Assembly: GCA_046484315.1 (NCBI GenBank)
Contig: JAWOJC010000168.1
Span: 1-34,616 of the forward strand
Origin: Smithellaceae bacterium
GTDB taxonomy: Bacteria > Desulfobacterota > Syntrophia > Syntrophales > Smithellaceae
Direction: 5' to 3'
Length of the DNA: 34,616 bases
Shown: piece after piece, positions 4,058 to 33,250 of the stretch
Layout of the letters: each line of letters begins with the position of its first letter
How positions within the stretch are numbered: the first letter of the stretch is position 1
The notes under the pieces: generated by a model
Told to the model about the DNA's origin: nothing
What the model saw: only the letters and a program-made list of their open reading frames with translations
Database searches by the model: none
Made by a program: the position numbers and the translations under genes

Positions 4058-4792
4058 ATGACAAAAATTTTTAAAAATATTGGATGGGCCTTTCTTCTGG
4101 CAACCTGCCTGGTTGCCGTGTCCGGGCAATCCGCTCTGAGCGCGCAGGAAAAAACGAAGCAGGATCAGGCCGGCGTGATGCAGGCCGTCCGGCAGCACAT
4201 AGAGAATCACGCGCATTGGGCGCCGGACACGATGCGGATTGAATTTCTGCCCCCCATGCCGGTCTTGGCCGGGCTTCAGGGACAGGTGTCCTTCCGGGTG
4301 GAGAGCAAACCCCGTGAAGAGTATATCGGGGAAACGTCCTTTAAACTTAGAATCCTACAGAATAATGTCTTCGTGAAAGAAGAAAACATCCGGGTTCGCA
4401 TTGAAGTTCTGCATGATTTTATAGTCAGCGCAAGTTCTCTGGGCCGGGGTGCGGTTCTTTCGGCGAATGATGTTTCCTTACAGCAGAAGTGGGTGCGCGC
4501 GATTCCGATGAATTCGGTCAATTCCATGGATGATGCGGTGGGTAAATCCCTCAATGCAATCGTTCGTCCCGGCAGCCGGATCACCAGAAGTATGCTCAAA
4601 GATATCTTCCCGGTTCAAAGAGGGAAAAGGGTTCAGGTGGTTTTAGACAACGGGATCATGACGATGGTGATGAATGGCCTGGCCGAGGAAGACGGTGCCG
4701 AAGACGCGATGATCCGGGTGCGCAATCTCAGTTCCAATAAGATTATTTATGCGCGTGTGGTCGGTCAGGGAACAGTTCGGATAGATTTTTAG
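4058..4792 (+). CDS. flgA: Flagellar P-ring formation chaperone FlgA
   Basis: Signal peptide, SAF domain and C-terminal 'VQRGKRV...GLAEEDG...IRVRNLSSNKII'. Confidence 0.92.
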   Translation: MTKIFKNIGWAFLLATCLVAVSGQSALSAQEKTKQDQAGVMQAVRQHIENHAHWAPDTMRIEFLPPMPVLAGLQGQVSFRVESKPREEYIGETSFKLRILQNNVFVKEENIRVRIEVLHDFIVSASSLGRGAVLSANDVSLQQKWVRAIPMNSVNSMDDAVGKSLNAIVRPGSRITRSMLKDIFPVQRGKRVQVVLDNGIMTMVMNGLAEEDGAEDAMIRVRNLSSNKIIYARVVGQGTVRIDF

Positions 4793-4807
4793 AAGGTTGA
4801 GGTTTTT

Positions 4808-5506
4808 ATGAAAAAATACACTTTATATATTGGGATGGCCGCGATGGGCTTGACGTTGATGTTTGCCGGCTGCATGCCTAAAAAAATGGATACCGTTCGA
4901 CCGGACACGACGCAGCAGCCTGTTTTGGAAACGGTAAAGCCGGCGCCCGGTGCGATCTGGCGGGGTGAAAATCAAAAGAGCATGCTCTTTACAGACAAGA
5001 AAGCAAGATCCGTTGATGATATCGTAACGATTATCGTTTCTGAGGCGTCTCAGGGTGGTAACCGGGCCTCGACGGGGACAAGCCGCGATTCGTCAACGTC
5101 CGCCTCCATTACGTCTTTGCTGGGTATTGAAAATTCCATTCTCAGTTCAAACGCAAATATGTCCGGCACCATCGGTCTGGGGGGCACGTCCAACAATGCA
5201 CTGAAAGGTCAGGGTGACACCAGCCGCAACACCACGCTGACGGCGCGGATCAGCGCGAGGGTGATTCGCGTGCTGGAAAACGGCAATATGCTGATTGAGG
5301 GACGAAGGCAGGTAACTGTAAACGCTGAGGATCAATACCTGGTTATCAGCGGGATCATCCGTCCCGAAGACATCACCACGGAAAATTCGATTGCATCACA
5401 GTACATTGCCGACGCGCGCATCATTCTAACAGGGCAGGGTGTGGTCAATGACAAGATGAGACCGGGCTGGCTGACGCGCGTGGTGGATTGGGTCTGGCCG
5501 TTCTGA
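4808..5506 (+). CDS. flgH: Flagellar L-ring lipoprotein FlgH
   Basis: Lipobox FAGC, 'LFTDKKA..VDDIVTI', 'SGIIRPEDI', C-terminal 'PGWL...WPF'. Confidence 0.96.
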
Positions 5507-29781: not shown

Positions 29782-30579
29782 ATGGATATTCTGCACGCGA
29801 TTGTTTTAGGACTGGTTCAGGGACTGGGGGAGTTTCTTCCGATATCAAGTTCCGCACATTTGATTTTGGTGCCGTGGCTGATGAAGTGGGTGGACCACGG
29901 CCTGATATTTGATATTGCCCTGCATGTGGGCACCTTGATTGCCGTAATTATTTATTTCTGGAAAGACTGGCTGATTCTGCTGTCCAAGGGATTTACAAAG
30001 CCGAAAGAAAGGGAAGGGAACCTCTTCTGGTATCTGGTGCTGGCAACCATTCCCGGCGCGCTGATCGGATTTATGCTTGAGGACATCGTCGAGACGGTTT
30101 TCCGCAATCCCGTTTTAATCGGTTTCATGCTGATCATTATGGGGACGATTCTCTATGTTGTGGATCGCAAGGGTAAAAAGCTAATTGATGTCCAGCATAT
30201 TTCATTAAAGACCAGTTTTCTCATCGGCCTTTCACAGGCCCTGGCAATTATTCCGGGCGTTTCACGATCCGGCGTGACGATGACCATGGCGCTGGCTTTG
30301 GGGATGACCCGCGAAGGCGCGGCGCGTTTTTCCTTTTTACTTTCCGCGCCGATTATTCTGGGTGCGGCGATAGTCAAGGTACCGGTTTTGATGGCCCATC
30401 CGGAGATGATCGACGCGGGCTTTCTCACCGGTGTGGCGGTGGCCTGTGTTTCGGGTCTTGCCGCCATCGGCTTTCTGTTGCGTTATGTCCAGACAAGAAC
30501 ATTTCTGCCCTTCGTAATTTACCGTTTCGGACTGGGCCTACTGGTTCTGGGTGTTGCGTTTTACCGCTGGGCTGTATAG
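29782..30579 (+). CDS. uppP: Undecaprenyl-diphosphate phosphatase
   Basis: 'QGLGEFLPISSSAHL', 'HVGT', 'PGVSRSG', 'AARFSFLL'. Confidence 0.96.
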   Translation: MDILHAIVLGLVQGLGEFLPISSSAHLILVPWLMKWVDHGLIFDIALHVGTLIAVIIYFWKDWLILLSKGFTKPKEREGNLFWYLVLATIPGALIGFMLEDIVETVFRNPVLIGFMLIIMGTILYVVDRKGKKLIDVQHISLKTSFLIGLSQALAIIPGVSRSGVTMTMALALGMTREGAARFSFLLSAPIILGAAIVKVPVLMAHPEMIDAGFLTGVAVACVSGLAAIGFLLRYVQTRTFLPFVIYRFGLGLLVLGVAFYRWAV

Positions 30580-30587
30580 CTGCAGGT

Positions 30588-31790
30588 TTAGAGTTTGTTT
30601 TCAATATCCTTTTCATCCGGGGCCTGATCGTCGAGGATCGGCGCTTCCAGAAGATGGCCGGGCAGGAAGAACTTATTGGCAATCAGCGTCGGGATCACGG
30701 CACTGGCAATGACCGCGCCGACAATCAGAGAATACTGATCCTGTGTAATGATATTGTTGGACAGACCGTATAGGGCTGAAATCGTTCCAAAGGTCAGGCC
30801 GGTGCTCATCAGCAGAGTGTAATACCATTTTTCATTTTTGTCTTCACGGAACCGGTGAATGGCTGGGTACAGGCCGAATATTTTTGAGACAACCTTTCCA
30901 CCGAACAACAAAATAAAAACACCAAAACCAGACAATAGCGCGGGGATGGAGACAAGCGCGCCGGCCCGGAGAAAATATAATGGGGTCAGGAAACCTACGG
31001 TCAACGTTCTGAGGCGTCTTACAAAGTGTCCGTCTTTTTCCATGGTGCGCGCCAGCACCATCCCCAGAACGTAGGCGGGCAGAACCGGCTCGCTTCCAGA
31101 CCAGGCGGCCAAAACGCCCGTGGCCAGAAGCACAAAGAGAACCCACTTGGCACGGATGGCTGCTGTTTTATAGGCAAATCGTTTGATGATGTATTCCGTC
31201 ATCGGGCGCAGGGTGAAGATCAAAAAGATCGTCACTGCAATAAATATCACCGTTTTATACGTGAAAGGGGCGAAGATCAGACCCAGCGCGATGACGGTTC
31301 CAAGATCGTTGACGAAACAGGCGCCCAGGATTCCTTTGCCGAATTCGGTTTTATTAAAGCCGTATTCGAGCATGACCGCATACACCACAGCCATGGAGGT
31401 GGTGGATAGGGCTATGCCGCATAAGAGACTGGCCTGAAGATTCCAACCGATGAGGTAATACGCAATCAGAAAGCAGCCGATAAACGGCGCAAAAAAGCCG
31501 ATCATGCCGATGATCGAGACTTCCTTGATTTTGGTCTTCATGGCGTCCGGATTGAGTTCCGCGCCGGCAAGGAAGGTCAGCAATATGGCGCCTACCCCCG
31601 TGCAGAATTTCATCCAGTCGGCATGGAGCAATAATGCGTCGAAACAGCCGAGCTTAAAAGCGACAAAGCCTGCGACGGCGCCCACCATGATTTCCATGAG
31701 CGCGATTGAAATTTTAAGACGGTTGGCTAAAACGGTGGACAAAACGGCGGCAAAAAACCAGAAAGCCGCGACGAGATAAATCTTTTCCAT
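30588..31790 (-). CDS. Cation:proton antiporter (CPA2/KefB-like), under fluoride riboswitch control
   Basis: About 13 TM helices with 'FLAGAE', 'LSTTSMAVV', 'CFVNDLG', 'TPLYFLRAG' and 'MSTGLTFG'. AAGGAG RBS. Confidence 0.88.
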   Translation of the reverse strand: MEKIYLVAAFWFFAAVLSTVLANRLKISIALMEIMVGAVAGFVAFKLGCFDALLLHADWMKFCTGVGAILLTFLAGAELNPDAMKTKIKEVSIIGMIGFFAPFIGCFLIAYYLIGWNLQASLLCGIALSTTSMAVVYAVMLEYGFNKTEFGKGILGACFVNDLGTVIALGLIFAPFTYKTVIFIAVTIFLIFTLRPMTEYIIKRFAYKTAAIRAKWVLFVLLATGVLAAWSGSEPVLPAYVLGMVLARTMEKDGHFVRRLRTLTVGFLTPLYFLRAGALVSIPALLSGFGVFILLFGGKVVSKIFGLYPAIHRFREDKNEKWYYTLLMSTGLTFGTISALYGLSNNIITQDQYSLIVGAVIASAVIPTLIANKFFLPGHLLEAPILDDQAPDEKDIENKL

Positions 31791-31816
31791 ATTAATGACT
31801 CCTTATCCGAATGAAG

Positions 31817-31863
31817 GTAGGAGTCATCAGCGGCAAAGGCAGTTAAAGGCGAACTCCATCGCC
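31817..31863 (-). ncRNA. Fluoride riboswitch (crcB motif)
   Basis: Minus strand GGCGATGGAGTTCGCC-TTTAACTGC-CTTTGCC-GCTGATGACTCCTAC. Shows P1 GGCGA/TCGCC, pseudoknot GGAGT/ACTCC and the conserved AAC.GC...GCTGATGAC.CCTAC elements. Confidence 0.93.
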
Positions 31864-31999
31864 TGCGCGAACAAAGGTTAAGCACTTAGACGGCGCGATT
31901 CATTAATCAAAATGCATCTCTTTTGTCAATAGTATTTGACAGTTCGGCAGATGTTTCCTGTTATCCGCCGCAAACATTCTCAGAAAGATAATTAATGAC

Positions 32000-32209
32000 A
32001 TGTCCAGACAGGAAACCATCAACAACGTTCACGGCTTATTCGATGAGGGTTACGCCTGTTCGCAATCTGTCTTGCTGCCGTTTAGTCAACGCTTCGGCCT
32101 GGATGAGCATACGTCAAAACGGATATCTTCCACCTTCGGCGGCGGGATGGGCAGGCTGCGCGAAAAATGCGGCCATCGAGAACATTTGGGGAACGCCCAG
32201 ATAACTTGA
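32000..32209 (+). pseudogene. Truncated C-GCAxxG-C-C family redox protein
   Basis: 'GYACSQSVL...FGGGMGR..EKCG' followed by unrelated sequence and a stop. The rest of the CGAxxG motif and the last two Cys regions are missing. Confidence 0.75.
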
Positions 32210-32240
32210 CGGTTACAAGCCGTTCCCCGCGGAATTCTGG

Positions 32241-33239
32241 TTATTTCATCGCCTGTTCCACAGCCACCGCGACAGCGACGGACGCGCCCACCATGGGGTT
32301 GTTGCCCATGCCGATGAGGCCCATCATTTCGACGTGCGCCGGAACGGAAGACGACCCGGCAAACTGCGCATCGGAATGCATGCGCCCCATCGTGTCCGTC
32401 ATGCCGTAGGAGGCGGGCCCTGCCGCCATATTATCCGGATGCAGCGTTCTGCCCGTTCCACCGCCGGAGGCGACCGAGAAGAATTTCTTCCCCGCCAGCA
32501 GACGTTCTTTTTTATACACGCCCATCACCGGATGCTGGAAGCGCGTCGGGTTGGTGGAGTTGCCGGTGATGGCAACATCCACGCCTTCCAGGTGCATGAT
32601 GGCCACGCCCTCGCGTACGTCATCCGCGCCATAGCAGCGTACAGCCGCGCGGTCGCCTGTCGAATAGGCTTTTTCTAAGGCGACGGAGACCTTGCCCGTT
32701 TTATAATCGAACGCCGTGGCGACATGGGTGAAGCCGTTGATGCGGGCGATGATATGGGCCGCGTCTTTTCCTAATCCATTCAGGATGACGCGCAGCGGTT
32801 TCTTTCTGGCCTTGTTGGCGGATTTGGCAAGCCCAATCGCGCCTTCGGCCGCCGCAAAAGATTCGTGACCCGCGCAGAAAGCGAAGCAGGCGGTTTCTTC
32901 GCGAAGCAGCATGGAGGCGAGATTCCCGTGGCCGATGCCCACCTGCCGGTCGTCCGCGACCGATCCGGGAATGCAAAAAGATTGAAGTCCCAAGCCCAGT
33001 GTTTCGGCGATATCGGCAGCTTTTTTTTGTTCTTTCTTGATCGCAGCGGCCGCGCCCACCAGATAGGCCCATCCGGCGTTTTCAAACGAAATCGGCTGGA
33101 TGTCTTTTACGATTTTTCGAACGTCAACGCCTTTGTCCTGACATACTTTTTCTGCGTCTTGAAGCGACGCAATGCCATATTGGGCCAGAAACGCATTGAC
33201 CTGCTGTATTCTTCTTTCATATCCTTCAAAGAGAGCCAT
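32241..33239 (-). CDS. GGGtGRT protein
   Basis: 'MALFEGYERRI', 'FCIPGSVADDRQVGIGHGNL', 'GHESFAAAEGAI', signature 'SGGGTGRTLHPDN'. GGAG RBS before ATG 33239. Confidence 0.92.
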   Translation of the reverse strand: MALFEGYERRIQQVNAFLAQYGIASLQDAEKVCQDKGVDVRKIVKDIQPISFENAGWAYLVGAAAAIKKEQKKAADIAETLGLGLQSFCIPGSVADDRQVGIGHGNLASMLLREETACFAFCAGHESFAAAEGAIGLAKSANKARKKPLRVILNGLGKDAAHIIARINGFTHVATAFDYKTGKVSVALEKAYSTGDRAAVRCYGADDVREGVAIMHLEGVDVAITGNSTNPTRFQHPVMGVYKKERLLAGKKFFSVASGGGTGRTLHPDNMAAGPASYGMTDTMGRMHSDAQFAGSSSVPAHVEMMGLIGMGNNPMVGASVAVAVAVEQAMK

Positions 33240-33250
33240 ACTCAAACTCC

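Follow-up and report, generated by a model that had tools for sequence, protein, structure and literature searches.

The window analyzed here, the 34,616-nucleotide (nt) contig JAWOJC010000168.1 from a Smithellaceae genome labeled G000, carries on its minus strand a fluoride riboswitch followed by the gene for a cation/proton antiporter, P0001 (window features are numbered by their position in this stretch; Table 1). Comparison across genomes suggests that the association of fluoride riboswitches with antiporters is accounted for by one sharply defined antiporter clade dedicated to fluoride stress, of which the window locus is an ordinary example. P0001 is probably a fluoride-induced electroneutral cation/H+ exchanger with an indirect role, namely the resetting of cytoplasmic pH or of the transmembrane pH difference (delta-pH), a reading to which we assign a probability of roughly 0.55. 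The association itself, which an earlier sequence-only reading of the window had taken to be known, is already in print: in a 2024 review, Na+/H+ antiporters appear as the next commonest class of fluoride-riboswitch genes after the exporters, and their role is put down to pH homeostasis (PMC11139923, citing Baker 2012). What is new is the linkage at the level of the clade, the exporter counts in its hosts, and a contrast within the phylum that includes a positional swap in one genus.

The window riboswitch is, judged from its sequence, a genuine and ordinary member of RF01734 (fluoride riboswitch, crcB motif), the RNA of which would be expected to respond to fluoride. The match covers the full model (positions 1-64) with 53.4 bits (E 3.1e-12), above the Rfam gathering score of 34 bits, and it is both the sole Rfam match in the whole window and the one fluoride riboswitch found by an Rfam search of the G000 assembly. 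This result agrees with the sequence-only reading, which had described a near-canonical crcB aptamer and had named a covariance-model search as the check, although the distance of 26 nt that it gave from the aptamer to the start codon is approximate, the interval being 20 nt when counted from where the Rfam match stops and 28 nt when counted from the last base of ACTCCT. In both sequence and model alignment, the GGAGT of the P1 loop and the 3′ ACTCC (31824-31820) provide the two strands of the pseudoknot. The window element thus shares with the translational riboswitches of RF01734 the full-length model match, the GGAGU/ACUCC pseudoknot and the position in the 5′ leader; it departs from the model in its short P2, from which two pairs are deleted, and otherwise shows no essential difference. 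It is possibly also the second of two tandem riboswitch units within a polycistronic transcript.

In translational fluoride riboswitches, the 3′ pseudoknot strand usually sequesters the Shine-Dalgarno sequence. On the minus strand of the window, ATGACTCCT (31827-31819) is a perfect 9-base-pair (bp) complement of AGGAGTCAT (31803-31795), as had been noted from the sequence alone, and the minimum-energy fold lengthens this helix to 11 pairs between TGATGACTCCT and AGGAGTCATTA, giving a platform hairpin of -16.0 kcal/mol when folded by itself. The start codon ATG (31790-31788) lies 8 nt past the GGAG core of the Shine-Dalgarno sequence. Two copies of the pentamer GGAGT are present, one forming the 5′ pseudoknot strand and the other the Shine-Dalgarno core (31802-31798), and both compete for the same ACTCC. 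A scan between the aptamer and the ATG detected no terminator-like site, in accord with the earlier reading, and the hairpin precedes UAAUAUG instead of a U-run; transcriptional control at this locus was therefore rejected.

The window element is very probably a translational ON switch. When fluoride is lacking, the 3′ pseudoknot strand (ACUCCU with its flanks) would pair with the Shine-Dalgarno region in the 11-bp hairpin and block translation; when fluoride is present together with Mg2+, the GGAGU/ACUCC pseudoknot would be locked during transcription of the aptamer, so that ACUCC is withheld, the Shine-Dalgarno GGAGU is left free and translation can start. Since the pseudoknot is far weaker than the hairpin, the switching decision is presumably made while the RNA is being transcribed.

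Pairing between the pseudoknot strand and the Shine-Dalgarno window recurs in 23 of 24 homologous short-leader loci, where 22-42 nt separate that strand from the start codon, and it shows compensatory changes, as between GATGACTCCT/AGGAGTCAT in the window and GATAACTCCTG/CAGGAGTTAT in locus L053; the window hairpin is therefore more than a chance complementarity. Homologs with long leaders (about 85-130 nt) have a terminator instead, in the form of a GC-rich hairpin with a U-run after it. The occurrence of two kinds of expression platform on one gene family argues strongly that fluoride induction is the property under selection in these genes.

The linkage between riboswitch and antiporter extends well beyond the order of the window. 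In an order sample of 41 genomes from the genus and order of the window, P0001 homologs (E < 1e-30) occur at 13 places in 12 genomes, and by coordinates a riboswitch lies directly upstream at 12 of these places, the 13th being cut by a contig start. A species-wide scan with one genome per GTDB species yielded at least 589 relatives, the best 80 of which (53-91% identity) were analyzed and, judged by record titles, span more than 10 phyla, among them Bacteroidota, Nitrospirota, Planctomycetota, Acidobacteriota, Omnitrophota and Spirochaetota. At the first 50 loci, the matching of contigs between riboswitch and gene relied on coordinate and strand alone. A riboswitch above the cut-off is present in 45 of these genomes; at 43 loci a same-strand riboswitch lies no more than 400 nt upstream and at three more within 2 kb, two of these 46 linked loci resting on sub-threshold matches of 30-31 bits. 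Among the other 30 loci, Rfam searches placed a riboswitch adjacent to the gene at 24 and within 2 kb at three, and three have none. In total, 73 of the 80 best loci are linked (67 within 400 nt and six within 2 kb), and in 34 of 50 genomes the antiporter-linked riboswitch is the sole fluoride riboswitch of the genome. The within-2-kb cases that were examined (L065, L086, L103, L109 and L114) are operons in which the riboswitch is followed by a dynamin-family GTPase gene and then by the antiporter gene.

The protein is a membrane domain of the NapA/Kef type. Its sole Pfam match is Na_H_Exchanger (PF00999; 117.8 bits, cut-off 26.2), and its best NCBIfam match, TIGR00932 of the CPA2 subfamily, reaches 97.5 bits where 238.3 are required; the equivalog models for KefB (cut-off 804) and KefC (cut-off 752) give 35.7 and 25.2 bits, respectively. 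A profile of 11 homologs searched against the Protein Data Bank (PDB) retrieved NapA (1.5e-17) and KefC (2.7e-11), and Foldseek with an AlphaFold (AF2) model of P0001 (pLDDT 78.9) placed NapA at the top (TM 0.66-0.79), with PaNhaP, NHA2 and KefC also matching. The model shows helix breaks at residues 128-133 and 328-333, as in the NhaA-type fold, and a Protein Atlas search returned Kef-type and cation:proton antiporter clusters only. The CPA2-type antiporter named in the sequence-only reading is thus upheld as a NapA/Kef-type cation/proton antiporter by Pfam, PDB profile and Foldseek, with TIGR00932 below its cut-off. No C-terminal KTN/RCK domain was found by Pfam or NCBIfam, and no homology to CrcB (PF02537) or CLC-F was detected, Na_H_Exchanger being the only Pfam match. 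P0001 is accordingly modeled as a 13-helix monovalent cation/proton exchanger of NapA/KefC fold, for which we infer the ion specificity and the direction of exchange.

The closest match in both sequence and fold is NapA, the CPA2 Na+/H+ antiporter of Thermus thermophilus (PDB 4bwz, 5bz2), which P0001 resembles in its similar length, in the broken helices of transmembrane segments (TM) 4 and 11, and in the TM10 lysine. The two proteins share only about 20% identity, and P0001 differs in having N161-D162 in its TM5 motif F-V-N161-D162 where NapA has D156-D157 (D162 lies opposite D157), in lacking the TM11-12 PRGE segment, and in having R-x-R in place of the NapA E-E. K299 and K303 are both present, and either may be the counterpart of NapA K305. 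Across 81 sequences the TM5 motif is N-D in 76 and T-D in five, so that the D-D pair of the electrogenic type is absent. D162 is aspartate in all 81, a count in which the motif served as one seed of the scan, and it is also invariant in 11 relatives that were found without a motif seed. Invariant or near-invariant in the same 81 sequences are E33, E78, LSTTS128-132, K215, R259, R261, K299, K303 and MSTGLTFG328-335, whereas the conservation of segments 67-76 and 157-165 is partly by construction because these were the seed patterns of the species-wide scan.

The TM5 motif of Kef proteins is Q-D, which the N-D of P0001 resembles more than it does the D-D of NapA. P0001 shares with KefC and KefB, the glutathione-gated K+/H+ exchangers (PDB 8bxg), the fold and the single TM5 carboxylate but lacks their C-terminal KTN/RCK domain, is 400 instead of about 600 amino acids (aa) long and falls far below their NCBIfam cut-offs; moreover, P0001 is apparently controlled by a riboswitch, and KefC and KefB by ligand gating. 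Fluc (CrcB) and CLC-F are, like the P0001 clade, riboswitch-controlled membrane proteins of the fluoride response but are unrelated to it in sequence and fold. A further parallel is offered by the Li+/Na+ riboswitches that control nhaA, in which an ion-sensing riboswitch likewise turns on a cation/proton antiporter; the ligand is there the transported cation (PMC9646797), and in the window an anion.

Most hosts of the clade appear to lack both known types of fluoride exporter. The G000 assembly (93.4% complete, 332 contigs) contains no match to CrcB, and its single CLC gene (L002 505-2310 (-), contig C318) encodes a protein of 601 aa with a CBS-type C-terminus and the motifs GREGP and GHGTD. 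Because CLC-F proteins are marked by the signatures GNNLI/GMGLI, GREGT/V and GEVTP (PMC11139923), none of which this protein has, it was rejected as a CLC-F and is taken to be a CLC of the chloride type; a genome check for fluc and eriC-F, proposed from the sequence alone, has thus turned up neither CrcB nor CLC-F in this 93% complete genome. CrcB is likewise absent above the cut-off from all 41 genomes of the order sample, several of which consist of one or two contigs; CLC occurs in 10 of them, with no CLC-F signature at any of the 10 loci, and fluoride riboswitches occur in 17. In addition, the one-contig genome G008 has a riboswitch and lacks CrcB, CLC and an antiporter homolog. Of the 50 genomes that carry the clade across many phyla, five have CrcB and 29 have CLC. 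Strict CLC-F signatures were found at none of the 40 CLC loci inspected, in a scan that had no positive control and that left out five fragmentary CLC matches; loosened patterns gave one match each at four loci (GREGA twice, GNGLV and GMGLL), and GEVTP at none. By comparison, the review gives a fluoride exporter for more than 85% of GEBA strains (PMC11139923).

In cells of this kind, which have neither Fluc nor CLC-F, the preferred version of our reading is that Kef-like K+(Na+)/H+ exchange by P0001 would dissipate delta-pH, and that the HF-driven trapping of F- would thereby lose its driving force. Kef systems bring about a protective acidification of the cytoplasm, which is a precedent for such a mechanism. 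As set out in the review, F- accumulates by delta-pH, with hydrogen fluoride (HF) as the permeant species (PMC11139923). Because F- accumulates with delta-pH, proton pumping would worsen the state of cells without an exporter, and dissipation of delta-pH would remove the trap. Constitutive drainage of the proton gradient would be harmful, and a riboswitch may here take the place of the KTN gate; the absence of that gate and the unusually tight control by the riboswitch fit this reading because such an activity must stay off when it is not needed.

The exchanger reading can be extended to relatives that stand next to crcB. At L161, L162 and L164, a single riboswitch precedes the CPA2 antiporter gene, which in turn precedes crcB, and at L166 the riboswitch is followed by crcB and, further on, by the CPA2 gene; at L163 (G331), the CPA2 gene adjoins crcB and no riboswitch reaches the gathering score. 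These operons look like a partnership and not like redundancy, and in them the same reversible exchanger could dispose of the proton that is left when F- exits through Fluc. It is the existence of the crcB operons, together with the attribution to pH homeostasis in the literature (PMC11139923), that leads us to favor an indirect role over fluoride export.

The distribution data are read most simply in another way, namely that P0001 itself belongs to a third fluoride exporter family besides Fluc and CLC-F and moves F-, HF or a cationic metal-fluoride (MgF+) against H+, which we consider unlikely. This alternative would explain why G000 has neither CrcB nor CLC-F and why the order sample has no CrcB at all and yet 17 genomes with riboswitches, and it would suit the clade-bearing genomes, 45 of 50 of which are without CrcB and whose CLC loci are without CLC-F signatures (0/40), against the exporter frequency in GEBA strains quoted above. 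It agrees also with the linkage at 73 of 80 loci and with the invariant R259-x-R261 at the place of the NapA E-E. A sample of 401 genomes from the phylum of the window gives it further support. In this sample, 55 genomes are clade-positive (E 1e-60 or better) and 166 have CrcB, which occurs in nine of the 55 clade-positive genomes against 157 of the 346 others (Fisher p 3e-5, a value that is overstated since related genomes are not independent). By similarity to P0001, CrcB is present in none of 16 genomes at about 60% identity or above, in seven of nine at 51-57% and in two of 30 at 37-49%. Six genera contain either-or species, with 12 antiporter-only genomes, 10 CrcB-only genomes and none with both, and seven genera contain genomes that carry both the antiporter and CrcB.

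A positional replacement was found in genus g78, the only positive among five genera examined, no position shared by antiporter and crcB being found in g41, g74, g136 or g53. Where G154 has a more distant CPA2 homolog of 379 aa between an ABC-transporter gene and a DUF486 (DMT_6) gene, G190 has crcB between the same two flanks, and in G222 crcB adjoins the same ABC-transporter flank, the DUF486 side being absent from that comparison; the slot thus holds the antiporter homolog at L170 3972-5108 (-) and crcB at L171 4029-4406 (+) and L181 3285-3626 (+). The change of the gene after DUF486 from the CPA2 family in G154 to crcB in G190 and G222 again favors an exporter. No riboswitch was detected at the g78 loci even at E up to 1, and the replacement is therefore independent of the riboswitch. 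The L170 protein is 40% identical to P0001 and has F-I-T-N and A-L-S-E-T-S where P0001 has F-V-N-D and A-L-S-T-T-S, which suggests a shift of the carboxylate from TM5 to TM4. The P0001 clade and Fluc are thus largely complementary in distribution, with one positional replacement; yet some relatives are co-transcribed with crcB, and this suggests a function that is complementary to Fluc and not redundant with it.

Several further points stand against export by P0001. The cation/proton machinery of the CPA superfamily is retained in D162, the TM10 lysine and the TM4/TM11 crossover, and we know of no member of the Na_H_Exchanger family that carries an anion. Life without an exporter is common in the order, where 29 of 41 genomes have neither CrcB nor a P0001 homolog, and the counts derive from metagenome-assembled genomes and from genomes whose relatedness makes them non-independent.

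The indirect exchanger reading has in turn to face evidence that does not sit easily with it. At the window locus, an 11-bp hairpin of -16 kcal/mol far outweighs a pseudoknot of 5-6 bp, so that switching would have to be kinetic or to need strong stabilization by the ligand. The linkage of the clade (73/80) is far tighter than that of true exporters, about 15% of Flucs and about 30% of CLC-Fs being riboswitch-linked by the figures quoted in the review (PMC11139923), and such dedication would not be expected of a general pH antiporter. The CrcB counts of 5/50 and 0/16, the six either-or genera and the g78 swap would fit a true substitute for the exporter equally well. Among the papers listed by a literature search and judged by title and abstract, none characterizes such an antiporter in fluoride resistance. 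The comparative data lend some real support to the antiporter as an alternative to CrcB. It is nevertheless doubtful that this riboswitch-bound NapA-fold clade forms a third, unrecognized family of fluoride-resistance transporters, be it by export of F-, HF or Mg-F against H+ or by dedicated collapse of delta-pH.

Less likely again is the classical account, in which a Na+/H+ (or K+/H+) antiporter extrudes protons and so compensates for the acidification that entering HF produces. Electroneutral exchangers of the NhaP/NHE type, of which some extrude H+, typically have an N-D motif, and the account fits the crcB operons, as the exit of F- through Fluc leaves a proton behind; it is also the view taken in the review (PMC11139923). 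In cells without an exporter, as most clade hosts seem to be, a higher cytoplasmic pH would however lead to more F- trapping and worse toxicity, as follows from the account of F- accumulation in the same source (PMC11139923). That P0001 is an ordinary housekeeping antiporter whose riboswitch is a coincidence, a relic or a regulator of the upstream cluster is very improbable, for although the lack of a promoter-like site between the GGGtGRT gene and the aptamer allows the RNA element to sit in a longer transcript, the pairing of riboswitch and gene persists across phyla at 73 of 80 loci and is served by two types of expression platform, and the hairpin engages the antiporter's own Shine-Dalgarno sequence.

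The surroundings of the antiporter gene agree in part with the description of it as lone and monocistronic in the sequence-only reading. The uppP/bacA gene, the convergence of which had been recognized there and is confirmed by its BacA/UppP match, ends 8 nt from the antiporter stop codon, and because it is convergent nothing is co-transcribed downstream of the antiporter. Upstream, however, the antiporter is the last unit of a same-strand cluster with a dynamin-like C-terminal part, a NifU-like gene and a GGGtGRT-family gene, a cluster that has its own fluoride riboswitch in a 91%-identical relative. In this relative (G016, the figure being that of the antiporter), the equivalent upstream genes follow a first riboswitch that lies about 2.8 kb upstream of the second, and if G000 is arranged likewise, its second riboswitch would lie about 100 nt past the contig end. 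Scans of the 368-nt spacer (31873-32240), for promoters with a simple sigma-70 pattern, found neither a terminator nor a sigma-70-like promoter, a result that for this phylum says little about a separate promoter of the riboswitch unit.

Table 1. Positions of the riboswitch, its expression platform, the antiporter gene and the neighboring genes in the window.
Feature	Position	Strand	Basis
Fluoride riboswitch aptamer, RF01734	31811-31872	-	Rfam, 53.4 bits vs 34
5′ pseudoknot strand GGAGT in P1 loop	31853-31857	-	Sequence; aligns with model GGaGU
3′ pseudoknot strand = anti-Shine-Dalgarno strand TGATGACTCCT	31819-31829	-	Pairs with 31793-31803 in minimum-energy fold
Shine-Dalgarno-containing strand AGGAGTCATTA, GGAG core 31802-31799	31793-31803	-	Sequence and fold
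NapA/Kef-like cation/proton antiporter P0001, 400 aa	30588-31790	-	Pfam Na_H_Exchanger, 6.7e-34
Convergent uppP/bacA gene	29782-30579	+	Pfam BacA, 3.7e-80
GGGtGRT-family protein	32241-33245	-	PF14057, 2.6e-187
NifU-like protein, 230 aa	33251-33943	-	Window copy without Pfam match; L017 ortholog NifU_N 0.002, below cut-off
Dynamin-like C-terminal part, 204 aa, truncated by contig end	34000-34614	-	66% identical to riboswitch-controlled open reading frame (ORF) of G016

The genes of the upstream cluster are found with fluoride riboswitches elsewhere. The GGGtGRT gene also lies behind a fluoride riboswitch in the relatives G008 and G016, and of the papers on GGGtGRT that were listed, none is linked to fluoride as judged by title or abstract. 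The riboswitch-controlled ORF of G016 (L022 671-1501 (-)) encodes a dynamin-like protein of 277 aa without a GTPase domain, residues 46-269 of which match residues 324-547 of the 551-aa Dynamin_N protein of L055, only a short N-terminal piece being shared besides. Dynamin-family GTPases of about 550-620 aa (Dynamin_N 1e-21 to 1e-30) are encoded immediately after fluoride riboswitches in several phyla, frequently in an operon with the antiporter (L024, L018, L035, L040, L019, L055, L065, L086, L100, L103, L104, L109, L114 and L076), and an enolase gene comes next at L065 and L086; a literature search yielded no paper that joins a fluoride riboswitch with dynamin. At L104, a Na_Ca_ex gene (4307-5353 (+)) directly follows the antiporter gene and is itself followed by a second riboswitch and a dynamin-like gene. 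Three tandem same-strand fluoride riboswitches are spread over about 7.6 kb on the contig of L056 (G046:C95) and about 2.8 kb on that of L100 (G090:C80), and these contigs look like small fluoride-response islands. MutS-related genes are a known association of fluoride riboswitches, and at L025 (G040) a MutS-related protein (MutS_V, MutS_III) is encoded 176 nt behind one.

The part of these results that is most worth following up is the distribution at the level of the clade. In the review, the role of riboswitch-linked Na+/H+ antiporters is explained only as general pH homeostasis (PMC11139923). The linkage of the clade, the scarcity of exporters in its hosts and the alternation with crcB within genera turn this into a concrete question, which is whether the protein can replace Fluc and by what transport reaction. 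If the clade were a third resistance family, it would replace Fluc and CLC-F across many anaerobic and uncultured lineages, and if the antiporter does replace Fluc, the prediction of fluoride tolerance from genomes would change, including that for anaerobic digesters and defluorinating consortia, which are habitats of Smithella-like syntrophs.

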